Shown here: piece by piece, positions 1,119 to 44,224 of the stretch
Position numbering within the stretch: the stretch's first letter is position 1
How the letters are laid out: each line of letters begins with the position of its first letter
Assembly: GCA_030681595.1 (NCBI GenBank)
Contig: JAUXSB010000055.1
Span: 364 to 64,363 of the forward strand
Reading direction: 5' to 3'
DNA from: Candidatus Omnitrophota bacterium
Lineage (GTDB): Bacteria > Omnitrophota > Gorgyraeia > Ghiorseimicrobiales > Ghiorseimicrobiaceae
DNA: 64,000 nt
Translations under genes and position numbers: made by a program
Notes under the pieces: generated by a model
What the model was told of the DNA's origin: nothing
What the model saw: only the letters and a program-made list of their open reading frames with translations
Database searches by the model: none

Positions 1119-2876
1119 ATGAAAAGAATAAAAAAATGTATCTGTATATTTCTTATTGGGTGGGTTTCTTTAGAATTTCCGGCAATAGGGTTTTCGGAAC
1201 TGGCCAAAGATTATTTTGACCGCGCCGCACAATATTATCTTAAGGGCAATATGGAACAAGCAAAGGCGCAGTTGGAAACGGCACAGCAGATAGACTCTGA
1301 ATATCAACCCGCCAAAAAATTAATGAATTTAGTGAAGGAAAAATTGGGGCTGGGGCTGAAAGGGGATACTTTGCTGTCTTTAGATTTTAAGGAAACCGAT
1401 ATTAATGTCGTGCTTCAGGCGTTATCGCAAGCCTACGGTTTAAATATCGTAGCTGGCGATGATGTAAAGGGTAAGGTTACGGTAAGTTTTAGGGATGTGA
1501 CGCTAGAGCAGGCTTTGGACAGTGTCTTAAAGGTAAACGGTTTTAGTTACGAGCGGGATAATAATATTATTATGGTGCGCCCGGCAAAAGGAAGCAAGAT
1601 TACTTCGGTGTTGCCGTTAAAATATATTTCGGCCGATGCGGCTAAAGGGATGTTGGCTAAAGCGCTTTCTTCTGATGGGGCGATAGAAGTGCATAAGGAA
1701 GCGAATGCGTTAGTTGTAACGGATTTATCTGAGAGCGTCAAGCAATTGAAAGGGTTAATTAAGGATATAGATATGCCGCCTCTGCAGGTAAGCATCGAGG
1801 CAAAATTAATCGATATCCAGTCTAAGGACCTGCGCGCCCTCGGCATAAAATACAGCGTAGATTATAAAGATACCAACATTTTTGGGCATAGAGGCGCTTC
1901 CAATACGACCGCCGAGGAAATTAAAAGCACATTTGACTTAGCCGAGCAGTCAGGTAATGTAACCGGCGGGCAATTTGTTTTAAATACATTCAGCATTAAA
2001 CATTGGGCTGCGGATGCCACGATTGACGCATTGATCTCTAAGCAAAAGGCGCATCTTTTAGCCAATCCTAGTATCACCACGCTAAACAATAATCAAGCTA
2101 AAATAATTATCGGCGAGAAAGTCCCTTTTAGAGAAGAAACCCAGACGCCGGTCGGTACAACCGAGACTACTAATTTTGTGGATGTCGGAATCTCTTTGAG
2201 TGTAACTCCGCGCGTAAATGACGACGGTTATATAACCATGACTATACATCCGGAGGTGAGTTCTGTTTCCGAGATATTAGCCGCCGGCCCGAGGATTACC
2301 ACGCGCGAGGCAGATACGACAGTGCGGGTCAGGGACGGTGAAACCGTGGTAATAGGCGGTTTGATTAAAAATCAGAATGATGGGACGCGTTCCCGTATTC
2401 CTATATTGGGCAGCCTTCCTTTGCTGGGGTTTCTTTTTAGCAACAGGACTGAAGATAAAATTCAGACTGAATTGGCAGTATTTATCACGCCTCATATAAT
2501 CCGGCCTGACCGCAAATCAAATTTAGAGACAAGTTTCGAGCCGGCGAACGCAGAAATTTTATATGATAATGCCGAAGACTTTTTAGGCGGTCTGGGCGTA
2601 GAGACATGGGATAGAAGCAGGAAAGAAATATTGATTCGCGCAGTTTCATTATTAGAGCAATTAGTAATCAGTTATCCTTTATCTGAGAAAGCAGACGACG
2701 CCCTTTACAGGGCAGGTTTAATCTATTATAGCGAAAAACCGGTAAAGGATTTAGCTAAGGCGAAGGCGAAATTTAAGCAGCTGATCGAGAAGTATCCCGG
2801 CTCTCAATATATAGACCGCGCAGCGGCTATCTTAAAGAAAATCGAGCAAAAGATAAAGCCAGCGGTAAAACGTTAA
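1119..2876 (+). CDS. Secretin of a type II secretion / type IV pilus system (GspD/PilQ family), with an extra C-terminal TPR-like (YbgF-like) region.
   Basis: N-terminal secretin-N-like region ('NNIIMVRP'). Secretin signature 'GETVVIGGLIKNQ...IPILGSLPLLGFLFS...AVFITPHII'. Signal-like N-terminus. Strong RBS. Confidence 0.8.
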   Translation: MKRIKKCICIFLIGWVSLEFPAIGFSELAKDYFDRAAQYYLKGNMEQAKAQLETAQQIDSEYQPAKKLMNLVKEKLGLGLKGDTLLSLDFKETDINVVLQALSQAYGLNIVAGDDVKGKVTVSFRDVTLEQALDSVLKVNGFSYERDNNIIMVRPAKGSKITSVLPLKYISADAAKGMLAKALSSDGAIEVHKEANALVVTDLSESVKQLKGLIKDIDMPPLQVSIEAKLIDIQSKDLRALGIKYSVDYKDTNIFGHRGASNTTAEEIKSTFDLAEQSGNVTGGQFVLNTFSIKHWAADATIDALISKQKAHLLANPSITTLNNNQAKIIIGEKVPFREETQTPVGTTETTNFVDVGISLSVTPRVNDDGYITMTIHPEVSSVSEILAAGPRITTREADTTVRVRDGETVVIGGLIKNQNDGTRSRIPILGSLPLLGFLFSNRTEDKIQTELAVFITPHIIRPDRKSNLETSFEPANAEILYDNAEDFLGGLGVETWDRSRKEILIRAVSLLEQLVISYPLSEKADDALYRAGLIYYSEKPVKDLAKAKAKFKQLIEKYPGSQYIDRAAAILKKIEQKIKPAVKR

Positions 2877-2891
2877 AAGAATAAATTTATT

Positions 2892-4109
2892 ATGCCTCTA
2901 TTCCGCTATAAAGTAAGAGACAGGTTCGGCGCAGCAGTAACCGGTCTTATCGAGGGGGATGTCTCGAAAACCGTTGCGGTTAACTTAAGAAAATTAGGTT
3001 ATAGCGTTATTTATATTGAAGAGCAGGCCGCGTTTGAAGTTTTTTTTGATAATCTGCTTAGCAAGATTAAAACGATTAAAACTGAGGAGGTAATTCTTTT
3101 TACAAGGCAGCTTTCCGCGATGATAAAATCCGGGTTGCCTCTTTTGGTAAGTTTAGACGGCACATTACCGGAAATACGCAATAAAAAATTTAAGGATACC
3201 ATAAATCAAGTTAAAAAAGACATAGAAGGCGGGATGAGTTTTCATGAAGCGTTAAGTAAACATCCTTTAGTTTTTTCCAGTCTCTATGTGAATATGGTAA
3301 AGGCTGGAGAATCAGCCGGTATATTAGACGCGATTTTGGAGCGCCTTGCGCAATTAGGCCTACGCGATATAGATTTAAAAAGCAAGATAAAGGCCGCTTT
3401 TGTTTATCCCATTGTCCTCTTGATACTTTCTGTAGCGGTAATAATATTTTTGTTAGTCGCTGTTTTGCCCAAGTTTGTTGCTATATTTGAGGCCTCTGAA
3501 ATGAGCCTCCCCCTGCCTACCATAATTTTAATTACTATGAGTAACCTTCTTAGGCATTTTTTTATCCCGTTCGCAATTATAATTATTTTTGTTGCTAGTT
3601 TATTTTTGAAGTATATCAGGACCGATAGGGGAAGGTATAACCTGCACCATTTTTTTTTGGGTATTCCCGTATTTGGCCTTCTTTGGCTTAAGATGATTGT
3701 TGCGCGCTTTGCTTATACGTTATCTTATTTAACTAAAAGCGGTGTGCCGCTATTGCAGGCTTTGGCAATAGTGGAAGGAACAATCAATAACGCTGTAGTC
3801 GTGCATGCGTTGCAGCATGTGCGTTCAAGCTTGACGGAAGGCCAAAGCCTTGCTGAGCCATTTAAAGCAAGCGGCCTTTTTCCGGCAATGGTCGTGCAGA
3901 TGGTGTCTGCGGGCGAGAAAACCGGAAAACTTGATACCATGCTTGAAGATATCGCCAACTTCTATGAATTAGAGACCGGCTATGCGATAAGAAATATGAC
4001 GGCTTTACTTGAGCCGGTCCTGCTTTTGTTTATGGGCTTGATGGTTGGGTTTATCGCGCTTTCAGTATTGCTTCCGATATTTAATGTTGTAAGGGCAATG
4101 CAGCATTAA
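2892..4109 (+). CDS. Type II secretion system protein F / PilC family inner-membrane platform protein.
   Basis: 405 aa. Duplicated GspF-type domains ('SGLPLLVSL', 'SGVPLLQALAIVEG') with three TM segments, typical of GspF/PilC. Confidence 0.85.
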   Translation: MPLFRYKVRDRFGAAVTGLIEGDVSKTVAVNLRKLGYSVIYIEEQAAFEVFFDNLLSKIKTIKTEEVILFTRQLSAMIKSGLPLLVSLDGTLPEIRNKKFKDTINQVKKDIEGGMSFHEALSKHPLVFSSLYVNMVKAGESAGILDAILERLAQLGLRDIDLKSKIKAAFVYPIVLLILSVAVIIFLLVAVLPKFVAIFEASEMSLPLPTIILITMSNLLRHFFIPFAIIIIFVASLFLKYIRTDRGRYNLHHFFLGIPVFGLLWLKMIVARFAYTLSYLTKSGVPLLQALAIVEGTINNAVVVHALQHVRSSLTEGQSLAEPFKASGLFPAMVVQMVSAGEKTGKLDTMLEDIANFYELETGYAIRNMTALLEPVLLLFMGLMVGFIALSVLLPIFNVVRAMQH

Positions 4110-4270: not shown

Positions 4271-4732
4271 ATGTTTAAATTTCGCACAAGAAATGCAGGT
4301 TTTACTTTAGTTGAGCTTTTTATTGTAATGACGATCATCGGTATACTTGCCATGATACTTGTTCCTAGTTTTACCGGATTTGATGTGGGCGCCAGGGTTG
4401 CGGCAACCCAGAGCAATTTAAATATTCTACGAACGGCGGTTACGGTGTTCAGAAGCAAGGAAGGGGCTTATCCTGTTTCTTTGGTGGATTTGGTAAATAC
4501 CACCTACCTTGACGCAGGAGTCGCGCGCCCTTATTTGAAGAAAATGCCACCGGAATTAATCAGTGATAAGGCCGGTAATAATGAATATGTTGATCAGCTC
4601 TTTTCGGCTCCTTTGTCGGATAAAGGCGGTTGGGTTTATTTTACGGATAAGGCAGAGGTGGCAGTCAATATTAACACGCCGTTAGACAGCAAGTGGAGTG
4701 AATACAAAGGTCAAAGGCCCTCCGAATGGTAA
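4271..4732 (+). CDS. Major pseudopilin/pilin with a prepilin-type N-terminal cleavage/methylation domain (GspG-like).
   Basis: 'GFTLVELFIVMTIIGILA' class-III signal / N-methylation motif right after a short basic leader. 153 aa. RBS 'gaggaggtt' upstream. Confidence 0.8.
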   Translation: MFKFRTRNAGFTLVELFIVMTIIGILAMILVPSFTGFDVGARVAATQSNLNILRTAVTVFRSKEGAYPVSLVDLVNTTYLDAGVARPYLKKMPPELISDKAGNNEYVDQLFSAPLSDKGGWVYFTDKAEVAVNINTPLDSKWSEYKGQRPSEW

Positions 4733-6888: not shown

Positions 6889-8610
6889 TTGATAATGGAA
6901 AAGGCGGATAAAAGAAGGGTATTAATAGGTGAGATTCTGTTAAAGCAGGGAAAAATTAATTCTAAGCAATTAGATGAAGTGTTGCAGGAGCAGCGTGCTA
7001 CAGGAAAGCCTTTGGGCGATATATTAGTTCAGAGCAAAATTGTCAGCGAAGAAGAGGTGGTTTTGCTCTTAAGCGAGCAGCTGAAGATTCCTTATGTAGA
7101 CTTAAATTCGTATTCGATAGACGCAGGGGTATTGTCTTTTATGCCGGAGGCGGCGGCTCGAAAATTTGAGGCAATGCCTCTTTTTAAAATAGGAGACACT
7201 ATTACAGTAGCAATGGTTGACCCCCTGGATATAAGCATTGCGGATCAGATTACCCAGGTTATTAAATGTACGGTAGAACCTGTTTTTGCGACTCCGTCAA
7301 GCATTAAAGCGGCTATAGATAAATATTACGGCGTGACCGGGATAAAATCATTTGATTATGCAGCGCAGCAGATAGCTACCGCAGAATTGCTTCCGCAGGC
7401 TGTGCAGTCAGAAAAAGAGAAAAAAGCCCAGATTTATCAGATGGCTCAGGCGGCTCAGGAGACACCTGTTGTTAAGCTTGTAAATTCGTTTATCGAAGAT
7501 GCGGTTGTTAATGGTGTCAGCGATATTCATCTTGAGCCGGCGGATAACGTATTGTTTGCGCGTTATAGGATAGATGGTGTGCTCTACGATGTAACGGCGC
7601 CGCCTAAAAAATTTCAGGACGCGATTATTTCCCGTGTGAAAATTATGGCAAATATGGATATTGCCGAAAAAAGGCTTCCTCAGGAAGGCCGCATACAAAT
7701 GCGGGTAAAAAATAAAGATATAGATTTAAGGGTTTCAACATTCCCGACTATTTACGGAGAAAATTTAGTCATTCGTATATTAGACCGCAGTAACATTTTA
7801 TTAGGTTTAAAAGATCTGGGTTTGGATTCTGATACGCTTACGCGATTTGAGTCTTTAATCCGTAGGCCTTACGGCATAATTTTAGTTACCGGCCCGACGG
7901 GATCAGGGAAAACTACCACACTTTATTCCGCCCTAAATACAATTAATTCAACCGATAAAAACATAATTACACTGGAAGACCCCGTGGAATATAAAATAGA
8001 GCGTATCCGCCAGTCCCAGATTGATGTAAAAACAGGGCTTACTTTTTCCCGGGGGCTTCGTTCAATTTTAAGGCAAGATCCCGATGTGATTATGGTGGGT
8101 GAAATCCGTGATTTGGAAACCGCAGAAATTGCAATACACGCCGCGCTTACCGGGCACCTCGTTTTTTCTACGCTACATACTAATGATGCTGCGGGAGCCG
8201 TCGGGCGCCTTATTGATATGAATATTGAGTCGTTTCTAATTTCTTCATCTTTGGCGGGCATTGTTGCTCAGCGGCTCGTGCGTTGTATCTGTAATGATTG
8301 TAAAGAATCTTACAGGCCACAGGAAAGGATAGTCAAAGAACTAGGCCTTGAGAGAGAATCATTATTATATAGAGGCAAGGGCTGTTCTAAATGTAGAAAT
8401 ACAGGTTACAAAGGCAGGACGGGCATTTTTGAGTTGCTTCTTCTGGATAATTCCGTTAAGGAATTAATTATTGCCAAGGCATCCTCGGATAAAATAAGAA
8501 AAGCCGCATTTAGCGCTAAGTCGGCCACACTTTACGAGCAGGGTATCGTAAAAGTTAAAGCAGGTGTTACTACAATAGAAGAGGTGATGCGCCTGACAAT
8601 AGAGGAATAA
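6889..8610 (+). CDS. Type II secretion / type IV pilus assembly ATPase (GspE/PilB family).
   Basis: N-terminal T2SSE_N-like domain. Walker A 'GPTGSGKTTT'. Asp and His boxes. C-terminal tetra-Cys 'CNDC...CSKC'. Confidence 0.9.
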   Translation: MIMEKADKRRVLIGEILLKQGKINSKQLDEVLQEQRATGKPLGDILVQSKIVSEEEVVLLLSEQLKIPYVDLNSYSIDAGVLSFMPEAAARKFEAMPLFKIGDTITVAMVDPLDISIADQITQVIKCTVEPVFATPSSIKAAIDKYYGVTGIKSFDYAAQQIATAELLPQAVQSEKEKKAQIYQMAQAAQETPVVKLVNSFIEDAVVNGVSDIHLEPADNVLFARYRIDGVLYDVTAPPKKFQDAIISRVKIMANMDIAEKRLPQEGRIQMRVKNKDIDLRVSTFPTIYGENLVIRILDRSNILLGLKDLGLDSDTLTRFESLIRRPYGIILVTGPTGSGKTTTLYSALNTINSTDKNIITLEDPVEYKIERIRQSQIDVKTGLTFSRGLRSILRQDPDVIMVGEIRDLETAEIAIHAALTGHLVFSTLHTNDAAGAVGRLIDMNIESFLISSSLAGIVAQRLVRCICNDCKESYRPQERIVKELGLERESLLYRGKGCSKCRNTGYKGRTGIFELLLLDNSVKELIIAKASSDKIRKAAFSAKSATLYEQGIVKVKAGVTTIEEVMRLTIEE

Positions 8611-8923: not shown

Positions 8924-9799
8924 GTGGAGTTTAAATTTTTCCGCTTTTTAAAATTTCCCGTAATAGAAGCCCCTTACTGTCATATCGCGCTTGCCCCAAC
9001 GATATTTAATTTTTTCCACGCTCAATTTTTGGCTCTAACCAGCGGAAATTGGCATATCTGGGGTTTTCTCACCTTAGGTTTTTTATGGTTATTTTTGATT
9101 TTTACCATTGGGCAGGGGATTTGCTCATGGGTTTGCTTTTACGGCGGTATAGACGAGGCATTCTCTAAAATATTGCCAAAACCGTTAATAAAATTAAAAA
9201 TCAGCAAAAAGTGGCGCGATTTTCCTCTGGCTTTTTTGGTATTTCTTTTAGTGATTTCTATTTTTCATGGCGCGGCTATATTCTGCAGCTGGTTTTGCCC
9301 GTTAAAAATGACGCCGTCGTTCGGCGACAACCTGATTTTACCTCGCGCTATGCAGATATTCTTTTTCGTTTTTATCTTCGGTTTATTTTTGATTTTACTG
9401 CCTATCCTTACTAAAAAGCGCACGTTTTGCGGCTTTATCTGCCCTTTTGGGGCATTGGTATGTATCTGCGGGAATGTCAGCCCTTACCGCGTAACTATTG
9501 ATAAAGAAAAATGTACCCTTTGCAAGAAATGTGCTGAAATATGCCCGGTTTTGGCGATTGACGGCGAAGAATTAGTCGAAAAATATAAAATTTCCTCATA
9601 TTGCAACAAGTGCGGGAAGTGTATCGATGCTTGTCCTGCGCAGGCAATAGGCGTATCTATTTTAGGTAAAAAAGAAAAAGGCCTCTTAGCGAGGAACATT
9701 TTTATATTCATTGCTTTATTATTAACCGGTGTGATCTCGGGTAACTTTGTTCCGCAGGCAATATTAGGCTTAATTGAGGGGTTTAGATGGTTCAGGTGA
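8924..9799 (+). CDS. NapH/MauN-like membrane-bound polyferredoxin (2x[4Fe-4S]) with N-terminal CxxxCP motifs. Start is uncertain (alternative start in an AT-rich region).
   Basis: 'CSWVCFYGG', 'CSWFCPLK' and 'CGFICPFGALVC' membrane motifs. Two ferredoxin motifs 'CTLCKKCAEICP' and 'CNKCGKCIDACP'. Confidence 0.6.
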   Translation: MEFKFFRFLKFPVIEAPYCHIALAPTIFNFFHAQFLALTSGNWHIWGFLTLGFLWLFLIFTIGQGICSWVCFYGGIDEAFSKILPKPLIKLKISKKWRDFPLAFLVFLLVISIFHGAAIFCSWFCPLKMTPSFGDNLILPRAMQIFFFVFIFGLFLILLPILTKKRTFCGFICPFGALVCICGNVSPYRVTIDKEKCTLCKKCAEICPVLAIDGEELVEKYKISSYCNKCGKCIDACPAQAIGVSILGKKEKGLLARNIFIFIALLLTGVISGNFVPQAILGLIEGFRWFR

Positions 9800-10404
9800 T
9801 TATCGAGGGCCTATTGTTGGGGTTATCCAGCGGTGCTTATTGCCTTGGTAGCTGCCTTGCTTTTTTTATGCCTTATCTCTTAAGCGAGGCAGAGACAAAA
9901 ATAAGAGAAAATATTAAAAATATATTGTTTTTTGTCTTGGGGAGGTTCGTTTCTTACATTATTTTTGCTTTGATAATAGGTTTTCTTGGCCAAAGATTCC
10001 GCAATATTTTTAGCGTTAAATTTTCTCATGCCAGCTTAATCATTGTTTCGCTTTTAATGTTAGCGTATTCTTTCGGAAAAAATTTTAATGAATCAAAATT
10101 CTGCCGGTTTATTTTGCCGCGTTTTGTTTCTCCGCGCATGCCGTTTATCTTAGGCTTATTTTTAGGGCTTAACCCTTGTGTTCCGTTTTTTACTGCCGCG
10201 CTGCGTATCTGGACAATCGGCGATATTTTTTCCGGGGTAGTTTTATTTACGGCCTTTTTTGTAGGGACGTCCATTTATTTAATTCCCATAACAATGATTT
10301 CTTATTTAAACCGCATTGAACGCATAAAGCAAATCGGTGTGATACTTACGATGCTAAGCGGCCTATGGTTTTTATTTGTGGGAATTTCAGGGCTAATCGG
10401 CTAA
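9787..10404 (+). CDS. Integral membrane protein (about 6 TM) with conserved intramembrane Cys motifs ('AYCLGSC', 'NPCVP'). Function unknown, possibly a thiol/metal-handling partner of the upstream ferredoxin.
   Basis: Hydrophobicity pattern. Overlaps the upstream gene by 13 nt. Confidence 0.4.
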   Translation: MVQVIIEGLLLGLSSGAYCLGSCLAFFMPYLLSEAETKIRENIKNILFFVLGRFVSYIIFALIIGFLGQRFRNIFSVKFSHASLIIVSLLMLAYSFGKNFNESKFCRFILPRFVSPRMPFILGLFLGLNPCVPFFTAALRIWTIGDIFSGVVLFTAFFVGTSIYLIPITMISYLNRIERIKQIGVILTMLSGLWFLFVGISGLIG

Positions 10405-10407
10405 CCT

Positions 10408-12594
10408 ATGCTTAATTTCACATTTTTATATTACGGAATATTTACCATAATCGCGCAACTGTTGGTTCTTAGGGAGGTGGCGTTTCTTTTCTTTTCTAAT
10501 GAGTTATTTCTCGGCACATATTTGGCAGCATGGCTTTTTTGGGTGGGAATGGGGAACCTTTTTATAAAACGTTTGTTAAAGGATAAGGATGCAAAGGCTT
10601 TATTTTGCTATTCGTTTTTGGCTCTTTCCGTTTTTCTTCCTATACAAATCTTAGCCATACGTTCTCTAAAAGGTATCTTTTCTTTTGGAATGGTAGCCGG
10701 GCCGCTGGCGATGGTCGCGTTCGTTATGGTAGTAATGGGGCCTTTTTGTTTTATTGTCGGCAGCCAGTTTAGCCTGGCCTGCGCTGTCGCCAAAGGGGAA
10801 AACGCGCTTAGCAGGGTTTACCGCTATGAGACACTGGGTTCGGTCGCTGGAGGCATTGTATTTACGTATCTTTTGATCGGGATAGTGCCGATATTTATTG
10901 TTTCACTGTTTTTATCATTCGGCTGCATTATTTGCGCATTCATGCTTTGCGAAAGGCCGCGCCCTAAAGATCTAGTCTTAATTTTATCCGTTTTTTTTAT
11001 ATTGTTTGCCGCTTTTAAAACGGAAGGCATAGCTAATAAAATTCAGTGGCAGGGATATAAGCTTATATCCAATAAGGAAACGCGTAATGGCAATTTAGCC
11101 GTCACACAGATGGGAAGCGTAAAGAGCCTTTTTGTAGACGGGCTGATTTCGGCGAATTTTTCAAGCCCCGAAGCCGATGAGCCTCCGGCACACTGGCCCA
11201 TGCTTTCAGTAGATAAATTAGAGAATGTTTTAGTAATCGGTGAGCCGGGTTTATGGATGCTTAAAGAGATTTTAAAGCATAATCCCCGCCGCCTAGACTA
11301 TGTCGTTTTAGATAAAGTTTTTATTGATTTTGTCAGGCCACATTTAGAAAAAGAAGATATTCTGGCTTTAGAAGATGTGCGCGTGGCCATCCATTATAAG
11401 GATGCGAGGTTATTTATCAGGGATAAGATAAATATCGCCAGGTATAAACTGCAATCCAATTTTTTCTATGATGCCATAATTTTAAATATTCCTGAGATAG
11501 CCAGCCTTAAGCTGAATAGGTTTCATACGCAGGAATTTTATAAAGAGGCCAAATCAATGCTTAACACTAAAGGTATGTTTAGTGTTAATATTGCTTCCTC
11601 TGAAAATTACATATCTCGCGTAACTAGAAGATTTAACGCCTCGATTTTTGCGACACTTTCATCTATGTTTAATAATGTGGAAATTATTCCCGGTGATAAC
11701 CTTATTTTTCTGTCCAGTCAGTCAAAAATAAATTTGGACAACGAGGCAATCGTAGAACGTGTCTTTAGGCGAAAAATAATTACCAGGTATCTCAATAAAG
11801 CATATTTTGCCTATAAACTTGAGCCGTTAAGGCGTGAGGCGTTAAAAAAACTTTTGGTTAATGAAAAGGATGCAGAAATAAACAGAGATTTTAAGCCTAT
11901 CGCCGCTTATTATTTTTCCCGGTTTTGGCAGAGCAGGTTTTCTTCTGCGCCAAGCTATCTTATCGCATGCTTGGCATTTATTGCGTTATGCGCAGCCGTC
12001 TTTAAAAAGAGGAAAGTTTTTTTGGGGGTTATGGAGAGAAGGTGGTCTGTCCTGATATTTTTCTTGGGTTTTGCCTCTATTTTACTTGAGCTGGTTCTTA
12101 TCTTAAGCTTTCAGATTACATCCGGTATAGTTTACTGGCAGATGGGCGTACTTTTTGCGTCTTTTATGCTTGGCCTCTTTCTAGGAAGCAGTTTTGCTTC
12201 ATTATTAAATAATAAGAAGGCGCAAAATTATTTCCGTTATTTAGCATTGTTATCAATCGTATTTGCGGTTGTTAGCGCGGGGCTACGTTTTCTTTTTGCG
12301 TATCTTATTTATTTTCCAGTGCTAGTTAATACTCTGGTTTTTTCTTTACTGTTGATTTTTAACGGTATTATTGTCGGATGCGCGTTTGTTTTTGCCGGAT
12401 TTTTGTCACCACAGGGTACGCTAGAAAAGGCAGGGCATCTTTATTCAGCCGACCTTTGGGGCGCGGCCTTAGGAGCAATGCTAGCAGGTAACTTTATTAT
12501 TCCTTATTTGGGTTTGTTCGGGGCTTTAAATGTTTGTGTAGTTATAGTGCTTACGGGGCTGTCAATTTTTATCATCGGCAATGAAAAACATTAA
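10408..12594 (+). CDS. Polytopic membrane protein with an embedded spermidine-synthase-like (aminopropyltransferase-fold) domain.
   Basis: 728 aa. Central 'VLVIGEPGLWMLKEIL...VLDKVFIDF...IILNIPE...FHTQEFYKEAKSMLNTKGMFSVN' resembles SpeE-fold methyl/aminopropyl-transferases. Many TM helices on both sides. Confidence 0.6.
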   Translation: MLNFTFLYYGIFTIIAQLLVLREVAFLFFSNELFLGTYLAAWLFWVGMGNLFIKRLLKDKDAKALFCYSFLALSVFLPIQILAIRSLKGIFSFGMVAGPLAMVAFVMVVMGPFCFIVGSQFSLACAVAKGENALSRVYRYETLGSVAGGIVFTYLLIGIVPIFIVSLFLSFGCIICAFMLCERPRPKDLVLILSVFFILFAAFKTEGIANKIQWQGYKLISNKETRNGNLAVTQMGSVKSLFVDGLISANFSSPEADEPPAHWPMLSVDKLENVLVIGEPGLWMLKEILKHNPRRLDYVVLDKVFIDFVRPHLEKEDILALEDVRVAIHYKDARLFIRDKINIARYKLQSNFFYDAIILNIPEIASLKLNRFHTQEFYKEAKSMLNTKGMFSVNIASSENYISRVTRRFNASIFATLSSMFNNVEIIPGDNLIFLSSQSKINLDNEAIVERVFRRKIITRYLNKAYFAYKLEPLRREALKKLLVNEKDAEINRDFKPIAAYYFSRFWQSRFSSAPSYLIACLAFIALCAAVFKKRKVFLGVMERRWSVLIFFLGFASILLELVLILSFQITSGIVYWQMGVLFASFMLGLFLGSSFASLLNNKKAQNYFRYLALLSIVFAVVSAGLRFLFAYLIYFPVLVNTLVFSLLLIFNGIIVGCAFVFAGFLSPQGTLEKAGHLYSADLWGAALGAMLAGNFIIPYLGLFGALNVCVVIVLTGLSIFIIGNEKH

Positions 12595-13857: not shown

Positions 13858-14496
13858 ATGCCTAAATATTATCCTATAAATCTAAATTTAGAAGGTAAAA
13901 AGTGCGTTGTGGTTGGCGCGGGTAGTGTTGCCGAACGTAAAGTAAGGCGCTTGCTTGAATGCGGCGCAAGAGTAGAAGTGGTCGCTCCCGTTGCCACAAG
14001 ACGATTAGAGAAATTGGCGCGCGCCGGAAAAATAACTTTAAAGAAAAAACATATAAGTTTAAGGGATATTGATAATTCTTTTTTGGTAATTTCTGCTACC
14101 GGCGATAGAAGAATTAATAATTTGGTATCGCGTTATTGTCAGGAAAACCGTATTTTGGTTAATGTGGCGGATTCTCCGTATGAATGTAATTTTACTTTGC
14201 CTTCGATAATCAAGCGAGGAGATTTGCTTATCGGTATATCTACTTCGGGCGCAAGCCCCGCGCTTGCCAAAAAAATCCGCAAGGACTTAGAGAAAATTTT
14301 TGGTAAAGAATATGCGGCATTCTTAAGCCTGATGAAGCGTCTTCGTCCGAAGGTAATCGCAAAAATTGAGAACTTGAATACCAGGAAAAAATTCTTTGAA
14401 AAGGCGGTTAGTCGCGGCATAATTCAATTATTAAAGAGAGGCAAAGAAAAACAGGTAAAAGGAAAATTGGAGCAGATGTTAAAAAATGTGCGTTAA
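13858..14496 (+). CDS. sirC: Precorrin-2 dehydrogenase / sirohydrochlorin ferrochelatase (SirC/Met8-like; CysG N-terminal domain).
   Basis: 'KKCVVVGAGSVAERKVRRLLECGARVEVVAP' Rossmann motif and overall CysG-N architecture. 212 aa. Confidence 0.75.
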   Translation: MPKYYPINLNLEGKKCVVVGAGSVAERKVRRLLECGARVEVVAPVATRRLEKLARAGKITLKKKHISLRDIDNSFLVISATGDRRINNLVSRYCQENRILVNVADSPYECNFTLPSIIKRGDLLIGISTSGASPALAKKIRKDLEKIFGKEYAAFLSLMKRLRPKVIAKIENLNTRKKFFEKAVSRGIIQLLKRGKEKQVKGKLEQMLKNVR

Positions 14497-14956: not shown

Positions 14957-15068
14957 AGATTACGGATAGAACTATATACGGACAATTAAGATATATAGAA
15001 CATGAGGTTATTGCGGTGGTTATAGTAAATAGACGCCCCGACAGATATCGGGGCTATCTCTAACGGGG
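14949..15068. mobile_element. MITE-like element, copy 2 (120 bp). TIRs 'cccgttagagat' and 'atctctaacgggg'. Subterminal hairpin 'tagacgccccgacagatatcggggct'.
   Basis: Same TIRs and hairpin as the other copies. The left TIR supplies the last codons and the stop (…cgt tag) of the hemX-like gene. Ends 5 nt before the hemA ATG. Confidence 0.6.
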
Positions 15069-15073
15069 CAAGA

Positions 15074-16213: not shown

Positions 16214-16224
16214 CGAGAAGCATC

Positions 16225-22985: not shown

Positions 22986-22986
22986 A

Positions 22987-32924: not shown

Positions 32925-33902
32925 ATGCATAACAAAACCAGAAACCAGAAACCAGAAGCCAGAAGCCAGAAAATTATTTCTTTTTACCGGTTTGTATGTT
33001 TGATTATATTTTTGTCTTCTTCCCATGTTTCTTTTGTAATTGCGCAGGAGAAGGAGTTCAAAAAGGGATGCCGCGCCTGCCATAGCGAACAAATAGATAA
33101 ATGGGATGCGTCAGAGGTCAGGCATTTTCCTTACGCTCGGGAAAAATGTGAGTCTTGCCATGCGGCGGAGCATAAAAAATTTACCCCGTTAGAGAAAAAC
33201 AGCGATAAGGTTAACAGTGAAAACATGGTTAGTAATGGTGAATTAACTCAGGCATCAGCAGGTACTGTTGGAGAAAGTTCTCTAACGGGGTTTACCGCAG
33301 AACAGGAGAAGCCTTGCTTAATCTGCCATGATTTAAATTCGGAAAAAATCAAAAAAGCGCATTTTTCCGGCGATTTAACCGGCGTAAATTGTTTTAACTG
33401 TCATTATACGCATGCCGCGGATAAAAAAGGCCTGCTTAAGGAATCTGTACATGAGCCGTTTGTTTCAGGTATGTGCGATGCCTGCCATAATATCAGCGCT
33501 GAAGGTAAAATAGAAGTGAAGGGACAAACCAAGAAAATCTGCCTTGCCTGTCATTCCAGTTTACTAACAAAGGACGATACAGTAAAACATTCCGGTTATG
33601 ATATGCTGGAATGTGTTGATTGTCACAATCCCCACACTAGTAGTGAAAAATGGCTTTTAAAGAAGAAAATAACACAAATTTGCTTTGATTGTCATGGTAA
33701 AGAGGAGGCGGCAAAGCACCCGTATGATGTAGTGCCTTCACAAAAAATAAATCTTGACAAAGGCAATGAAATATGGTTAACTAATGATAGGCAAATGAGT
33801 TGCGTAAGCTGCCATAATCCTCATTCAGCAAAAATTCCCTTTCTGCTGAGAGAGTCCCTCGAGGATGGGAAGCTCTGTAATATTTGTCATCCAAAACAAT
33901 AA
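32925..33902 (+). CDS. Decaheme c-type cytochrome with an N-terminal signal anchor. Contains a heptamer-repeat-encoded N-terminal stretch and an internal MITE-TIR-bounded insertion.
   Basis: 10 CxxCH (CRACH, CESCH, CLICH, CFNCH, CDACH, CLACH, CVDCH, CFDCH, CVSCH, CNICH). 'TRNQKPEARSQK' is encoded by (aaccaga)n. Confidence 0.8.
   Translation: MHNKTRNQKPEARSQKIISFYRFVCLIIFLSSSHVSFVIAQEKEFKKGCRACHSEQIDKWDASEVRHFPYAREKCESCHAAEHKKFTPLEKNSDKVNSENMVSNGELTQASAGTVGESSLTGFTAEQEKPCLICHDLNSEKIKKAHFSGDLTGVNCFNCHYTHAADKKGLLKESVHEPFVSGMCDACHNISAEGKIEVKGQTKKICLACHSSLLTKDDTVKHSGYDMLECVDCHNPHTSSEKWLLKKKITQICFDCHGKEEAAKHPYDVVPSQKINLDKGNEIWLTNDRQMSCVSCHNPHSAKIPFLLRESLEDGKLCNICHPKQ
33184..33292. mobile_element. 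MITE-related insertion, copy 5 (~109 bp) inside the decaheme cytochrome ORF. Bounded by 'ccccgttagaga' and 'tctctaacgggg', with an internal sequence unlike copies 1-4.
   Basis: Both 12-nt termini match the TIRs of the family in inverted orientation at the expected spacing. Encodes the in-frame linker 'FTPLEKNSDKVNSENMVSNGELTQASAGTVGESSLTGF' between heme motifs. Confidence 0.45.
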
Positions 33903-33915
33903 AAGGAGTAAAAGC

Positions 33916-34893
33916 ATGAAAAGGAAAAATCTTTTTATAAGTTTATTAGTGAAATTATTCACGGTGATATTTTTCACTATAATTTTTTGCGGTTATTCGG
34001 GCTTAAGATTTTGTTTTGGGGAAGCAGCCAGCCGATATAAATTTCTTTATGATTTAAGTTCTAATACTTCCGGAATAGGTTCTCTTAATCAGCCAGCGGG
34101 TATAGCTGTTGATATTGCGGGGAATATTTACGTGGCAGATACCGTGAACAGCCGAGTGGTGGTCTTTGATGAGTTGGGAAAAATAAAACTCAGTTTTGGA
34201 AAATTAGGAGATAAAGCAGGGGAATTAAATGCTCCAATGGCGCTAATTGTCGATTCAAAGGGAGAGAAAGTATATGTAGCGGATTCATCCAATAACCGGG
34301 TACAGGTGTTTAAAATTAATGGCGAATTTATTTCAACGATAGATTTAAGCAAGGCTCTTAGCGATAAAGACAGGCTAGTACGGCCGATTGGGATCGCTAT
34401 TTCAAGCCAAGGCAATATTTACATTTCAGATGCGGATAATAATTATATCCGAGTTTATGATAGCGCAGGGAATTTTTTGTTTAAATTCGGGGGTTTCGGT
34501 GCCGAAGAAGGCAAACTCTGCCTGCCGGTGGGGTTATCTATTGATAAAAAAGATAATGTTTATGTGGTGGATATGAATAACGCAAGGCTGCAGATTTTTG
34601 ATAAAGAAGGAAAATTTTTATCGAAAATTGGCTCTCCCGGGGATACAAAAGGCAGCTTCGGTAAACCGAAGAGTGTTTATGTGGATAATAAAGGGGTGAT
34701 TTATGTTTCCGATGGAGCGAATCTAGTTATCCAAGCATTTGATAAACAGGGAAACTTTATAGATTTAATTGGGGCGGAGAAAGAAAAAGAACTACAGTTT
34801 GCTTCTCCGTTTGGATTGAGCGGGTATAATAACCGCCTTTATATAACTGATAGATGGAGAAATAGCGTAAGAGTTTATGAGGTTAAAAATTAA
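33916..34893 (+). CDS. NHL-repeat six-bladed beta-propeller protein with an N-terminal signal/TM. Start moved to the ATG at 33916, behind the RBS 'aaaggag'.
   Basis: Six repeats of the type 'P.GIAVD..GNIYVADT.NSRVVVFD..GKF' (NHL). The upstream part of the track ORF overlaps the cytochrome gene by 38 nt. Confidence 0.75.
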   Translation: MKRKNLFISLLVKLFTVIFFTIIFCGYSGLRFCFGEAASRYKFLYDLSSNTSGIGSLNQPAGIAVDIAGNIYVADTVNSRVVVFDELGKIKLSFGKLGDKAGELNAPMALIVDSKGEKVYVADSSNNRVQVFKINGEFISTIDLSKALSDKDRLVRPIGIAISSQGNIYISDADNNYIRVYDSAGNFLFKFGGFGAEEGKLCLPVGLSIDKKDNVYVVDMNNARLQIFDKEGKFLSKIGSPGDTKGSFGKPKSVYVDNKGVIYVSDGANLVIQAFDKQGNFIDLIGAEKEKELQFASPFGLSGYNNRLYITDRWRNSVRVYEVKN

Positions 34894-38481: not shown

Positions 38482-39927
38482 ATGAAAAATAATAAAACAC
38501 CAGTTTTTCTTTTAGCTACTTTAGGGATTTTTCTGTTTATTGTGCCTATTTATGCCGAGCATTATGAAGGCCGGGATTGCAGCGAGTGCCATCAGGAGCA
38601 TAATAATGACGAATATAAAATTTTAACCGATACAGCAGTCAATGGCGGTGACGTTCCTTGTTTTAGCTGTCATTCGCAAGAGAGGCCGAGTAGTCCCGCG
38701 CCCGATACAAAGAAGGAATTTGATATGGCTAGTTCCCGCCATCCCTTAGGAAGCGACAAGGAATGCCTTATCTGCCATGAATTAAACAATAAGCATAATG
38801 ATGGGCATATAGATTCTTGGCCGGATGTGGGGTTGCGTGATCCCGACTCGCAAGATTCTCACGTTTATAGCGGCGATAAAATCAATAATTTTTGTTTGAG
38901 TTGTCATGATAATTCGCCGGTTAGCCTTGGGGATCCGCCGCGGACGCCTATTGATTTATCTAGCGCGTATGAATTTAGCGGACACGGCCGCATAGATATA
39001 AACGAGCCATGCACAAGCTGCCATAAACCCCATGCCTCCATAAATAAGCCTTATATGATTCAAGACGTGATTAATGAAACTGTGATTACAGGAAATGACA
39101 ATAGCGTCTGTTTTGCCTGCCATAGTTATTCAGAAGGTATTTATCCCGGGAAGAACACTTATTTAACCAGCGAGCACGGGATAGAGAATAAACTCTGTAT
39201 TGATTGCCATAATCCCCATGGGGACAATAAGGACCTTTGTTATCTCTGCCATAACGACAAATATTCCGCGCATTATAGCGCAAAGCGCGATAAGCTTTGC
39301 ATTGACTGCCATAATCCCCATGAAAAAGGCGGACTAAAAATGACCAAAGAAGATGAGGAAAAATTGTGTTTTGCCTGCCATAAAGAATTGGAGAGGGAGT
39401 TCGGAAACTTGCGCGACGGCGTATCGGGAAGCTTTTCGCACCATAAAGTTGACGATGAAGAATACGGAGGAGGAAAAGTAGAATGTTTCGACTGCCATAA
39501 TCCGCATATAGTGAATAAAATGAATATCGTAAGCGATCCGGATTCATCGAGTATGAATATGCCGCCAAGGGCGTTCCCGAAAGACAGCTATAGTTATAAA
39601 ACAGATATTTACGATGAATTTTGCCTTGCCTGCCATGACGGCTCGCGCATTTCGGCAAAAAATATAAAATCAGAATTAGACAGTGTTTCGAATTTAGAAA
39701 CCGAATTTACGCAAGGCCAGGCTAACAACCTGCATAAAACCCATAAAGAAAGAGGCTATGGCTGTCAGAATTGCCATAACGCGCATTCAAGCAATGGGAC
39801 AAGCGGCATTAGAAAGGGCGCCTTATTAGATGAGCGGCTCGCTATTACTCATTGGAACCAAACGGATAAATACTCAGATGGAAAGAATTCCTGCAGCGGT
39901 TCCGGGTTAGCGTTAGGATGCCATTAA
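38482..39927 (+). CDS. Multiheme c-type cytochrome (~13 CxxCH) with a signal peptide; candidate periplasmic or outer component of a porin-cytochrome conduit.
   Basis: Signal 'PVFLLATLGIFLFIVPIYA'. 13 CxxCH including repeated 'C(I/F)DCHNPH' units. 481 aa. Confidence 0.8.
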   Translation: MKNNKTPVFLLATLGIFLFIVPIYAEHYEGRDCSECHQEHNNDEYKILTDTAVNGGDVPCFSCHSQERPSSPAPDTKKEFDMASSRHPLGSDKECLICHELNNKHNDGHIDSWPDVGLRDPDSQDSHVYSGDKINNFCLSCHDNSPVSLGDPPRTPIDLSSAYEFSGHGRIDINEPCTSCHKPHASINKPYMIQDVINETVITGNDNSVCFACHSYSEGIYPGKNTYLTSEHGIENKLCIDCHNPHGDNKDLCYLCHNDKYSAHYSAKRDKLCIDCHNPHEKGGLKMTKEDEEKLCFACHKELEREFGNLRDGVSGSFSHHKVDDEEYGGGKVECFDCHNPHIVNKMNIVSDPDSSSMNMPPRAFPKDSYSYKTDIYDEFCLACHDGSRISAKNIKSELDSVSNLETEFTQGQANNLHKTHKERGYGCQNCHNAHSSNGTSGIRKGALLDERLAITHWNQTDKYSDGKNSCSGSGLALGCH

Positions 39928-41738: not shown

Positions 41739-42656
41739 ATGTGGTATCAAGTATCCCCGCCTGTGGCGGGACAGGCAGGTATCAAGTATCAAGTAATAAT
41801 TGCTGTTGCGGTTTCGCTATTGTACTTTTGTTTTCTGCCGGCTTATGGCTCGTCTGAGTGCAGCCAGTGCCATCAAATAGAGGCAGAAAGTTTTGCTTTG
41901 ACTAAACACGCGATAGATAAAAACTGCGATATTTGCCACGGGAGCAGCGAGAAACACTTAACTGCAGAGGTTAAAAAGGATAATATTATTAATCCCAACG
42001 GGTTAAATCTTAAAAAGGGGAATGGTATATGCCTTAGCTGTCATACGGAAAAAGCGAAAGACGTAAGTGAGAGGTTTGTTGCTGTAGCGAGCCTGCATGA
42101 TGATTTACGTTGTTATGAATGCCATACGGTACATTTAAAAAGCTCTGACGAAGAGGCCGATGTAGATTTATTTAAAGACGACCTATATGTTGATTGTTCC
42201 CTTTGTCATAGTAATCAGGCGGAAAATTTTTCTGATTCCGGGCATGGTTTGTCAGGAATAAAATGTTTAGACTGCCATAAGCCGCATGAAGCAAAAACAA
42301 TAAGTCAGGATATAGAAGGAGAAATTGATAAATGCTTGTCTTGCCATCCGGCTCAGGAGTTGGAATTTAAATCTTTTTACGCGCATCCGCTTCGCCAGAG
42401 GCAGATTAGGTGCAGTGATTGCCATAACCCACATAGTAACAATTATGATAAAATGCTCAAAAAAGACGCGGATGATTTATGCGGGGATTGCCACGCCGGT
42501 ATTATGATTGAAGGGGGTAAGCATCCGCTAAGCAAGAATACGAACCATCCGTTTAAAACGGTGGAATGCCTGGATTGTCACCGGCCTCACGGTTCAAATT
42601 TTGATAAGCTGTTAAAACACAATATAGACAATATCTGCAAAACATGCCATAATTAA
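41739..42656 (+). CDS. Multiheme c-type cytochrome (11 CxxCH) with a signal peptide; second cytochrome partner of the beta-barrel.
   Basis: CSQCH, CDICH, CLSCH, CYECH, CSLCH, CLDCH, CLSCH, CSDCH, CGDCH, CLDCH, CKTCH. N-terminal hydrophobic 'VIIAVAVSLLYFCFLPAYG'. Confidence 0.8.
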   Translation: MWYQVSPPVAGQAGIKYQVIIAVAVSLLYFCFLPAYGSSECSQCHQIEAESFALTKHAIDKNCDICHGSSEKHLTAEVKKDNIINPNGLNLKKGNGICLSCHTEKAKDVSERFVAVASLHDDLRCYECHTVHLKSSDEEADVDLFKDDLYVDCSLCHSNQAENFSDSGHGLSGIKCLDCHKPHEAKTISQDIEGEIDKCLSCHPAQELEFKSFYAHPLRQRQIRCSDCHNPHSNNYDKMLKKDADDLCGDCHAGIMIEGGKHPLSKNTNHPFKTVECLDCHRPHGSNFDKLLKHNIDNICKTCHN

Positions 42657-42875: not shown

Positions 42876-43769
42876 ATGTGTAATAGCAATACGAAGAAAT
42901 TATTTTCATTTTTCACTTTTAATTTTTCACTTTTAATTTTTTTAGCCGGTTGCGCATCCGGCCCGTCCAGCTATTTTAGGTTAAAGCCGGTATCTAAGGA
43001 TACACATGTAAAAACGGCTATTATTCCTTTTACTAATCTTACATCTGAAAAAGACGCGGAGAAAAAAATCGCCTACGCATTAATAACACACCTTCTAAAT
43101 ACGACTTATTTTGATATTGTTGAAACAGGAGAGGTACAGAAAGCGATGCGCGATGGTAAGGTGCGCAAAGACGAGGACTTATCTTTAGAGAATATAAAAA
43201 GTATCGGCCAGCTTACCGGCGCAGACGTCCTTTTAATGGGCGTGGTTGAAGAATACAAGATTGATTCCAGTACTCTGTTAGGCGAAAAAGTATTCGTTCC
43301 GGAAGCCTCTGTCAGCCTGCGGCTTGTCAGCGTCAAAGACGGCTCAATCGTCTGGTCGGTAAACCACCACCGCAGAGGCGATGACCGCGTGACTATCTTT
43401 GGTATGGGCAGGGTAGATTCCATAAGTACTCTTACGGATATAATCATAAAGAATAGCGTTGATTCTTTAATGCGGGTGATGAGAAAAAGGCGTAATGCCT
43501 TAGCGATGTTAAAGAACAACCCGCCTGCCGAAGAAGCCGTTGGTAAGGATGCTGTTATAAAAAAAACAGATAAACAGGGCAGAAAAGATGCGGGCCGGCA
43601 AAAGGCGATAGAGGATGCCATAAAAGGATCCGGGAGCAAAAAAGAAATAAAAAAAGAAAAGGCTGTTTCTTTGCCGCCTGTTAAAGATGTTACTAAGCCT
43701 AAAGACGCACGCCAGGAAATAAAAGACCAGTATAACCAGGAATACGAAAAAATCAAAAAACAATACTAA
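42876..43769 (+). CDS. Outer-membrane lipoprotein of the CsgG/FlgO-like family (curli-secretion-channel-like fold), with a K/E-rich low-complexity C-terminus.
   Basis: Lipobox 'LIFLAGC'. 'TAIIPFTNLT...KIAYALITHLLNTTYFDIVETGEVQKAM...IGQLTGADVLLMGVVEEY' matches the CsgG-family N-terminal consensus (AVxPFxN...L...FxVVER...GAD.ll.G.V). Confidence 0.45.
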   Translation: MCNSNTKKLFSFFTFNFSLLIFLAGCASGPSSYFRLKPVSKDTHVKTAIIPFTNLTSEKDAEKKIAYALITHLLNTTYFDIVETGEVQKAMRDGKVRKDEDLSLENIKSIGQLTGADVLLMGVVEEYKIDSSTLLGEKVFVPEASVSLRLVSVKDGSIVWSVNHHRRGDDRVTIFGMGRVDSISTLTDIIIKNSVDSLMRVMRKRRNALAMLKNNPPAEEAVGKDAVIKKTDKQGRKDAGRQKAIEDAIKGSGSKKEIKKEKAVSLPPVKDVTKPKDARQEIKDQYNQEYEKIKKQY

Positions 43770-43789
43770 TTTTTTATTAAGGGAAATTT

Positions 43790-44224
43790 ATGGCAAGATT
43801 CAGAATGTTGGGGGCGGCCATATTTATTTTTTTATTTTTTCTGTTTGCCATCAGTTATTGTATTTCTCAAGTAGCCAATGATGGTGATTACTGCTTATCC
43901 TGCCACAATAAGGACGTAAATTTAAGCAAGAAATTCCTGCATCCATTAGTTAAGGAAAAGAAATGCCGGGCTTGTCATATATCTTATGATAACAGCCGTC
44001 ATAAAGAAGGCGATGAACCTGTATTTAGTGCGTGTATAAGTTGCCATAGTGAAGAAAAATTAGGGCGTTCGCATCCGGTAGGAGATGGCGTCATTGATCC
44101 TAATACCAAAGATACGATGACTTGCGTATCCAGCTGCCACATACCGCATGGATCAGACTATAAGTATCAGCTGGCATTTAAGAACAATATGGAGTTATGT
44201 CTTAGTTGTCATAAGGATTTTTGA
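43790..44224 (+). CDS. Small c-type cytochrome (4-5 heme motifs) with a signal peptide.
   Basis: 'AAIFIFLFFLFAISYC' signal. CLSCH, CRACH, CISCH, CVSSCH (C-x3-CH), CLSCH. Confidence 0.7.
   Translation: MARFRMLGAAIFIFLFFLFAISYCISQVANDGDYCLSCHNKDVNLSKKFLHPLVKEKKCRACHISYDNSRHKEGDEPVFSACISCHSEEKLGRSHPVGDGVIDPNTKDTMTCVSSCHIPHGSDYKYQLAFKNNMELCLSCHKDF

Follow-up and report, generated by a model that had tools for sequence, protein, structure and literature searches.

A co-directional gene cluster encoding multiheme cytochromes and their supply chain, with a probable role in extracellular electron transfer, in an uncultivated Candidatus Omnitrophota bacterium

We present here an analysis of a 64,000-nucleotide stretch of the genome of an uncultivated Candidatus Omnitrophota bacterium (assembly GCA_030681595.1, contig JAUXSB010000055.1), called the window below, in which a long run of genes on one strand encodes 11 multiheme cytochromes, an outer-membrane beta-barrel, heme synthesis, cytochrome c maturation and a type IV filament machine. 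On the whole, this locus is probably a self-contained supra-operon for extracellular electron transfer (EET), as judged from its genes and their order. The EET role itself, which a first-pass annotation of the same DNA had proposed, is well supported by homology to the MtrA, OmcE and CbcL types and by synteny in seven loci. If this holds, some Omnitrophota respire by EET, in a phylum of mostly ultra-small, possibly host-dependent cells. It would then be unusual that the barrel family has no sequence relationship to the conduits known so far, that OmcE-type cytochromes have been expanded from 4 to 10-11 hemes, and that a single co-directional run provides for the making and attachment of heme, for electron entry at the inner membrane and passage across the outer one, and for a type IV filament machine. 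The finding has limited practical impact: the organism is uncultivated, and metal-reducing cytochromes of Omnitrophota have already been published.

Our analysis covers positions 1119-48526 of the window and takes as genes the accepted open reading frames (ORFs) of at least 100 aa. According to the ORF listing and translation all of them lie on the + strand, so the 43-kb co-directional stretch described earlier stands as such; the sole − strand gene of the 64-kb window is found at 48531-50213. The 11 cytochrome ORFs, which lie within 24801-44224 (19.4 kb, 4384 aa), contain 112 CxxCH motifs, fewer than the roughly 130 in about 20 kb counted before, and the remaining 44 ORFs (15106 aa) contain one. 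In a six-frame translation all 113 such motifs belong to the + strand and the − strand has none; the enrichment is therefore far above chance expectation. Three of the 11 cytochromes are anchored in the inner membrane and eight are soluble or secreted, where the first-pass annotation had at least 10 of the latter kind. They have about two histidines per heme, which is compatible with bis-His electron-transfer hemes, and the catalytic CxxCK motif occurs in none of the 11. Each functional layer that had been listed, namely secretion, heme synthesis, maturation, the NrfH-like cytochrome and the two cytochrome-b fusions, is recovered by hidden Markov models (HMMs).

The word "island" in the earlier description does not fit these data. 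The G+C content of the window is about 41% and even throughout (it had been called low), no integrase or tRNA is found at the cluster borders, and the housekeeping genes at its flanks show synteny with those of relatives. Therefore the cluster is a stable chromosomal supra-operon, and horizontal acquisition as an island is ruled out. Rfam and tRNA scans of the window return only a tRNA-Arg at 63542-63617, and a promoter and terminator scan of 24700-44600 finds no more sites than in shuffled sequence.

The cytochrome genes are organized around a conserved core, which we compared in seven loci (the window and the related loci that we label L002, L003/L015, L004, L005, L011 and L017); their barrels are at least 50% identical. 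In all seven the order is the same: a 10-heme cytochrome, an NHL propeller, an OmcE-like cytochrome, a 13-heme cytochrome, the barrel, an MtrA-like 11-heme cytochrome, an LpoB/CsgG-like lipoprotein, a 4-heme cytochrome and a HAMP-domain protein (Table 1). What varies is the number of OmcE-like copies, from one to four with three in the window, and some core genes are called shorter in L011. The lipoprotein is kept in all related loci and the HAMP protein in L002-L005, L011 and L017. The propeller gene lies beside cytochromes in all related loci and also in more distant OmcE-like clusters; the lipoprotein status of the propeller at 33865 is uncertain.

The barrel at the center of this core has the same sequence (100% identity) as a hypothetical protein from a Candidatus Omnitrophota metagenome-assembled genome (MAG), and its relatives are found in four genome loci, all in uncultivated MAGs, three of which are labeled Omnitrophota/Omnitrophica and one simply uncultured bacterium. 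An anammox planctomycete as the source, first suggested by the low G+C content, the Ahb pathway, System II maturation and the NHL-plus-cytochrome genes, was discarded in view of such protein matches to Candidatus Omnitrophota MAGs. The family is small, with 15 homologs in a word-indexed search of 5.8 billion proteins, and a profile search of 1.84 billion representatives yields one full-length cluster and three fragments. In its AlphaFold model the C-terminal 400 residues are placed with confidence and would form 22 strands, preceded by about nine N-terminal strands of low confidence; general porins have 16-18 strands. No Plug, TonB or MtrB_PioB domain of Pfam is detected in the barrel, and the match to Porin_4 is weak (24.7 bits, below the cutoff of 27). 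In seven of seven loci it stands between multiheme cytochromes, and it has no sequence relatives outside that context. Given the tiny family, the cytochrome context in all loci and the missing Plug, TonB and MtrB_PioB domains, the barrel is a lineage-specific protein known from cytochrome context only and not a generic porin. The next gene encodes the MtrA-like cytochrome, whose residues 92-304 align with residues 61-282 of MtrA (PDB 6R2Q_A, E = 2.8e-21) including eight heme motifs, and the spacing between the two genes ranges in the seven loci from a small overlap to a gap of 27 nt. An adjoining MtrA homolog is in accordance with the outer-membrane conduit predicted earlier. No MtrC/OmcA-family lipoprotein cytochrome accompanies the pair, TIGR03507 being unmatched.

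The three tandem OmcE-like paralogs match OmcE (7TFS_A, E = 6e-8 and 4e-7) as well as the OmcE of D. soudanensis (9YUQ_N, E = 2.6e-6 and 2.7e-8). They retain the KHD...CxxCHxPHNA head, the CxxCHDG and HPxN motifs and the CxxCHxxH...CxxCH tail; all four heme sites and the four distal histidines of OmcE are covered, and eight motifs align in the paralogs at 36081 and 34915. The tetraheme unit is duplicated internally (E = 1e-8), which explains the 10-11 hemes. With this number and a length of 361-390 aa, the paralogs are not the tetraheme subunits of about 220 aa that define OmcE.

On the inner-membrane side, the NrfH-like cytochrome matches Cytochrom_NNT over profile positions 12-100 of 174 only and NrfH (2J7A_C) with E = 3.2e-7, and it has 8 hemes; NrfH-like, as in the first assignment, is what these matches allow. 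An identity as ImcH was ruled out, for the protein has 1 transmembrane (TM) helix and 8 hemes against 3 TM helices and 7 hemes in ImcH. The two cytochrome-b-fused multiheme proteins are also recovered: both those at 25675 and 30093 have the CbcL/MtrH/MtoC architecture, in which an N-terminal multiheme c part is followed by a C-terminal FdnI/HydC-type cytochrome b. The former has 5-6 TM helices and 7993 homologs at E <= 0.001, and among the best 120 nearly all that carry a name are Omnitrophota/Omnitrophica. The latter, with 19 hemes, lies between ccsA and the core in the window and L006 only, not in L002, L003 and L005; in L007 and L009 its homologs of 910-930 aa are encoded at other places. 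The c554-like gene adjoins resB/ccsA in the relatives L006 and L007.

The start of the first CbcL-like gene deserves a remark. The ORF is listed from a TTG codon at 25675, and a signal peptide is encoded upstream in frame with no canonical start codon before it. This upstream peptide, KKIKAHRNFTSFIFFLLLLGFSQ, is identical in a 92% relative (L006 9950-10010), where the nominal TTG start of the window is TTA, a synonymous Leu change. A non-canonical ATT start at 25636 is likelier to be the true one. It shares one base with the TAA stop codon of the NrfH-like gene (AATTAA), and this suggests translational coupling of the two genes. In other Omnitrophota, a Rieske/cytochrome-b (bc-type) pair is present among multiheme cytochrome, ccsBA and CbcL-like genes in L007/L008 (2836-4414) and L009 (180-2138); the window has no such pair.

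Upstream of the cytochromes lies the siroheme-dependent (Ahb) heme b pathway, with genes for SirC/CysG-N, a small CcsA-like protein, HemA, HemC, CobA-HemD, AhbC, HemB, AhbD, AhbA, AhbB and HemL. A best-match gene is found for every step (HemA, L, B, C and D, SUMT, precorrin-2 dehydrogenase/chelatase, and AhbA-D), which bears out the claim of completeness, with AhbC and AhbD slightly below their cutoffs. NCBIfam models are passed by AhbA (149, cutoff 140), AhbB (179, cutoff 125) and CysG_Nterm (176, cutoff 62). System II maturation was likewise rightly named, with adjacent genes for ResB/CcsB and CcsA, and in L002, L003, L005 and L006 these two immediately precede the cytochrome core. Two DsbD_2 proteins of the window are candidates for the CcdA role, and no ResA/CcsX thioredoxin-like protein is seen. 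One of the two DsbD_2 genes belongs to a four-gene module, whose radical SAM enzyme scores 373 bits with TIGR04337 (cutoff 220). The module is intact in L009 (8262-13330), L010 (8315-13323), L011 (8206-13047) and L012 (8517-13307), adjacent to cytochrome or heme genes or at most tens of kb away from them: it adjoins a cytochrome-b fusion in L009, comes right after the core in L011 and lies about 20 kb from a cytochrome cluster in L010. No AMMECR1 or Memo partners of the module are found. It may have a role in cytochrome maturation.

The run begins with the filament machine, for which the secretin, the GspF/PilC-like and GspE/PilB-like proteins and the prepilin-like proteins were found by HMM, in line with the apparatus first described as like a type II secretion system (T2SS) or type IV pilus (T4P). 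The models of the two systems give near-equal scores, all below equivalog cutoffs, for the D-, E-, F- and G-like proteins (T4P models PilQ, PilB and PilC). For example, the secretin scores 262 with PilQ and 252 with GspD, and the ATPase 634 with PilB and 618 with GspE, the latter two slightly under cutoff; its cyclic di-GMP (c-di-GMP) motif scores 59 above a cutoff of 38. Neither GspC, L or M nor PilMNOP nor a prepilin peptidase is detected in the cluster with Pfam and NCBIfam. By these profiles the machine is assignable no further than as a type IV filament machine, T2SS-like. The mature major pilin at 4271 has 11.2% F/Y/W and a longest aromatic-free gap of 22 aa, with aromatics at positions 1, 24, 27, 50 and 57, and so conforms to the criteria by which Bray et al. 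(bioRxiv 10.1101/668343) recognize e-pilins in silico, which are a heuristic only. Among the minor pilin-like proteins N_methyl is weak in two of three, under the gathering score, and the ORF at 4867 has no family match.

Table 1. Features of the locus, with positions in the window, strand and supporting evidence
Feature	Position	Strand	Evidence
Secretin with STN, N0 and C-terminal TPR domains (PilQ/GspD-like)	1119..2876	+	Pfam Secretin 174.5 bits, STN, Secretin_N
GspF/PilC-like platform protein	2892..4109	+	Pfam T2SSF 186 bits; NCBIfam GspF 364 < cutoff 424
Major (pseudo)pilin, aromatic-rich	4271..4732	+	Pfam N_methyl
Three small/minor pilin-like proteins	4867-5223, 5208-5660, 5642-6877	+	N-terminal TM helices
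GspE/PilB-like assembly ATPase with c-di-GMP-binding MshEN	6889..8610	+	Pfam T2SSE 469 bits, MshEN 74.7
Four-gene module: NapH-like polyferredoxin membrane protein, DsbD_2 (CcdA-like), 728-aa membrane SpeE-like protein, AmmeMemoRadiSam-type radical SAM enzyme	8924..13717	+	HMM
Siroheme-dependent (alternative, Ahb) heme b pathway, complete	13858..24771	+	Pfam and NCBIfam
NrfH/NapC/NirT-like inner-membrane cytochrome, 1 TM helix, 8 CxxCH	24801..25640	+	Pfam Cytochrom_NNT 41.3 (cutoff 24.1)
CbcL/MtrH/MtoC-like, 11 c-type hemes and FdnI/HydC-type cytochrome b	25636..27516	+	Pfam Ni_hydr_CYTB 63.4 (cutoff 30.1)
Periplasmic tetraheme cytochrome c554-like	27589..28125	+	Pfam Cytochrome_C554 77.8 bits
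ResB/CcsB	28260-29327	+	Pfam ResB 165 bits
CcsA	29324-30103	+	Pfam Cytochrom_C_asm 180 bits
19-heme cytochrome c fused to cytochrome b, second CbcL-like	30093..32864	+	19 CxxCH; Ni_hydr_CYTB 31.6 (cutoff 30.1)
10-heme secreted cytochrome, first core gene	32925..33902	+	CxxCH count; PDB MtrA partial match E = 2.4e-11
NHL-repeat beta-propeller	33865..34893	+	Pfam NHL 115 bits
Three tandem OmcE-like paralogs, 10, 11 and 11 hemes	34915-36000, 36081-37238, 37245-38417	+	PDB OmcE matches
13-heme secreted cytochrome, directly 5' of barrel	38482..39927	+	Position kept in 7/7 loci
Large outer-membrane beta-barrel, orphan family, 599 aa	39937..41736	+	Signal peptide; invariant C-terminal Phe
MtrA/DmsE-like 11-heme cytochrome	41739..42656	+	Starts 2 nt past barrel stop codon
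Lipoprotein (LAGC lipobox), LpoB/CsgG-like domain	42876..43769	+	Pfam LpoB 35.2, CsgG 31.0, both above cutoffs
Small 4-heme cytochrome	43790..44224	+	CxxCH; kept in all loci
Membrane HAMP-domain protein, last core gene	44389..44967	+	Pfam HAMP 39.3

How far these layers belong together is a matter of synteny. The first-pass annotation took the 43 kb as one unit. The whole layout from the secretin to the core is indeed kept in a relative of 82-92% protein identity from another sample, but more distant relatives have their modules reshuffled, and the claim of one unit is therefore overstated. This leaves room for an explanation that we regard as quite possible, although we do not expect it to be the right one, in which the unit is only the core with ccsBA, the T2SS/T4P-like machine serves attachment or host interaction, as is usual for Omnitrophota, the heme pathway is housekeeping, and the neighborhood is a lineage-specific accident. 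Indeed, only the window and the 82-92% identical relative have the full layout in common, in L009, L010 and L011 no T2SS adjoins the four-gene module, the type IV filament genes fit neither T2SS nor T4P models above equivalog cutoffs, and Seymour et al. track type IVa pili and Tad pili among symbiosis-related genes across Omnitrophota. Set against this, heme genes recur beside cytochrome or ccs genes (hemL in L007; hemA, hemB, hemL and hemCD in L009; hemA in L004), and the distant relative L017 has a reordered set of T2SSE, T2SSF and five pilins directly upstream of its core. The arrangement of L017 favors a functional link between the T2SS-like genes and the core, short of proof.

A second explanation makes the core an omcE-type filament locus, in which the paralogs would polymerize, the barrel would be an usher-like secretion pore or anchor and the pseudopilus would push the subunits out. 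The cluster fits the minimal omcE set, with a propeller (one only), OmcE-like genes, a large barrel, two multiheme cytochromes and resB/ccsB adjoining; the four CxxCH and four distal-His motifs of OmcE are kept in the paralogs, and the T2SS-like adjacency is met again in L017. In a metagenome scan with the paralogs we found KHD-headed cytochromes beside NHL propellers in a range of sizes, that is tandem 4-5-heme proteins (L028), the 10-11-heme proteins of Omnitrophota, and giants of 18-24 hemes linked to split CbcL-like genes. We nevertheless hold this explanation to be unlikely. No filament of subunits with 10-11 hemes and 360-390 aa is known, against 4 hemes and about 220 aa in OmcE; the resemblance to OmcE is distant and in part generic; the structure model of one paralog is unusable; and the tight coupling of the MtrA-like gene to the barrel argues for a conduit. 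It is highly improbable that the cytochromes instead feed a periplasmic reductase of a soluble acceptor (nitrite, sulfite or tetrathionate) with the barrel as an ordinary diffusion porin, for although there are weak partial matches to NrfH, NrfB, HmcA, TmcA and octaheme tetrathionate reductase models, the sub-cutoff Porin_4 match and partial denitrification encoded by some Omnitrophia (Seymour et al.), those matches are far under curated cutoffs, as are the NCBIfam scores of the NrfA, NrfB and sulfite-reductase-partner kind, CxxCK is missing from all the cytochromes, no reductase gene lies in the window, and the barrel, which occurs only in this cytochrome context, is modeled with far more strands than the general porins cited above, so that neither of the two objections foreseen by the first-pass annotation, partners of nitrite or sulfite reductases and an unrelated generic porin, holds.

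Several points weigh against the EET supra-operon as well. Neither quinone biosynthesis genes nor terminal reductases are visible in the window, and no T2SS-like genes adjoin in L009, L010 and L011. Some key matches stay below curated cutoffs: the MtrA-like protein scores 138.6 with TIGR03508 (cutoff 192.2) and has 11 hemes, the NrfH-like protein 60.2 with the NrfH model TIGR03153 (cutoff 134), and AhbC (552, cutoff 650) and AhbD (493, cutoff 500) are best matches yet sub-equivalog. The OmcE similarity is remote and comes partly from the widespread Paired_CXXCH_1 motif, and an AlphaFold2 model of the paralog at 36081, built without hemes from an alignment of the three paralogs, has a predicted local distance difference test (pLDDT) score of 29.9. 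Finally, the organism is uncultivated and the functional roles proposed for the locus are predictions from its genes.

If the EET reading is right, electrons would take the following course. Heme b is made by the siroheme-dependent Ahb pathway, and ResB/CcsA, probably aided by the CcdA-like DsbD_2, exports it and attaches it to the 112 CxxCH sites, as homology and synteny show. At the inner membrane the NrfH-like 8-heme cytochrome and the two CbcL-like fusions would trade electrons with the quinone pool, and these three may cover different potential windows, as in Geobacter. The c554-like and the 10-, 13- and 4-heme cytochromes are candidates for the periplasmic relay, from which the MtrA-like 11-heme rod, presumably within the lineage-specific barrel, would move electrons across the outer membrane. 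The chain would end, at the cell surface or outside the cell, in the three OmcE-like paralogs, with the NHL propeller and the lipoprotein as putative scaffolds, and the placement of these folded cytochromes outside the cell is probably aided by the neighboring T2SS/T4P-like machine, whose pseudopilin is rich in aromatic residues. Electrons may flow either outward, to minerals or partners, or inward: OmcE and CbcL of Geobacter act in reduction, in contrast to the homologs in D. ferrophilus, which have been proposed for electron uptake (PMC5815863). A bolder version is that the paralogs form a new, possibly heteromeric filament of high heme density on the orphan barrel, exported with the aid of the T2SS-like machine and wiring ultra-small cells to minerals or to host or partner cells, with the four-gene module as a dedicated, so far undescribed maturation accessory for such heme-dense proteins; we consider this speculative and would be surprised to see it borne out.

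Some further observations concern the locus and its surroundings. Heptanucleotide tandem repeats occur within coding regions at 32935-32972, 5227-5265, 42903-42941 and 20815-20846. Among them, (AAACCAG)x5 stands directly behind the ATG of the 10-heme gene at 32925 and is absent from the 12 related loci compared, and others lie in the N-terminal regions of the pilin-like gene at 5208 and the lipoprotein gene at 42876. Since the repeat unit is not divisible by 3, frameshift phase variation could be possible. A direct repeat of 106 bp in two copies (80% match, 45597-45806) is intergenic, 3' of a gene for a 167-aa membrane protein. Downstream of the core, 45946-51125 encodes a 9-TM TPR protein, the second DsbD_2, a − strand TPR protein (weak PMT, GT39-like) and a GT2 glycosyltransferase; the set is reminiscent of the GT2/GT39/TPR glycosylation genes after many omcE clusters and is only partly kept in relatives. 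About 2-9 kb past the position of the right end of the window, L014 (3422-10285) has genes for NuoL/M-like, NuoH-like and fused 30-kDa/49-kDa (faint NiFe-hydrogenase) subunits, and this predicted membrane complex looks like an energy-converting (group-4) hydrogenase or a complex-I-like module. There is also another, widespread cluster type on metagenome contigs with a G+C content of 39-58% (L018, L020, L021, L023, L025, L026, L030, L034 and L045). It consists of an NHL propeller, a KHD-headed 11-heme and an 8-heme cytochrome, a split CbcL-like pair (a 7-heme c subunit and a separate cytochrome b), a 3-heme cytochrome, a second NHL propeller and an OmcE-like giant of 18-24 hemes and 790-1044 aa.

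Related clusters, CbcL and ImcH homologs and metal-reduction cytochromes are already known in this phylum. An Omnitrophica MAG from Crystal Geyser in which ten multiheme cytochromes lie side by side was reported by Bray et al. (bioRxiv 10.1101/668343); for three of the ten, which have 11 or 13 hemes, an outer-membrane or extracellular location was predicted. The same study notes aromatic-dense pilins of the Crystal Geyser Omnitrophica that branch with the Geobacter T2SS pseudopilin OxpG. The cluster of Bray et al. is from the same phylum and probably of the same locus family as that of the window; L003, from a CG11 Omnitrophica MAG and the putative counterpart, has the same core order with 11- and 13-heme proteins. 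Zhong and Shi list 3 CbcL and 3 ImcH homologs for Candidatus Omnitrophica, in the work of Seymour et al. 10 of 23 Omnitrophia species have homologs of the cytochromes for metal reduction of D. ferrophilus, and Nobu et al. count Omnitrophota, from digester transcriptomes, among the phyla possibly performing direct interspecies electron transfer via multiheme cytochromes. Novelty is limited by these reports, and the clustering, which the first-pass annotation had singled out, is not without precedent, for the omcE clusters of Desulfuromonadia also lie beside resB/ccsB and the Omnitrophica cluster of ten cytochromes was published before. What is new is the giant barrel of an orphan family, the raised heme number of the OmcE-type cytochromes and the presence of the whole supply chain in a single run. 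The mention in Bray et al. is brief, and neither the barrel, nor the MtrA-, OmcE- and CbcL-like identities, nor the linkage to heme synthesis is described there; beyond that cluster, the window has the 19-heme/cytochrome-b gene within the cluster and T2SS-like genes on the same-strand run.

We finally compare the locus with known systems. As in MtrCAB, MtoAB and PioAB, the gene of a periplasmic multiheme rod, here MtrA-like, adjoins that of a very large outer-membrane barrel. Unlike the 26-strand MtrB/PioB, the barrel of the window lacks the MtrB_PioB signature, and the order differs from MtrAB-type conduits in that the barrel comes before an MtrA-like protein, here with 11 hemes. At the inner membrane, the protein at 24801 resembles NrfH and CymA in its putative N-terminal NapC/NirT TM-plus-heme module, and the CbcL-like proteins have 11 and 19 hemes against 9 in Geobacter CbcL, inside the range of 3-23 given for homologs where the CbcL/MtrH/MtoC family was defined (PMC6295460). 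In D. ferrophilus IS5 (DFE_448-451 and DFE_461-465), cytochromes of 12-14 hemes together with NHL propellers have been proposed as an outer-membrane complex (PMC5815863), and multiheme cytochromes are clustered with NHL-repeat beta-propellers in the window as well; compared by description, no beta-barrel is reported for these clusters, their propeller is the proposed scaffold and their proposed role is electron uptake. The closest set of parts is that of the omcE clusters of Desulfuromonadia, where a large barrel, beta-propeller lipoproteins and two multiheme cytochromes stand by resB/ccsB, and such clusters have been reported from five phyla, Omnitrophota not among them (bioRxiv 10.1101/2025.10.22.684050). 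The window has in common with them the adjoining resB/ccsB, the multiheme cytochromes, the propeller, the large barrel and a subunit that has KHD in its head and paired CxxCH motifs in its tail; it differs in its 10-11-heme subunits, in its three tandem paralogs, in having a single propeller, and in that filament formation is putative here.

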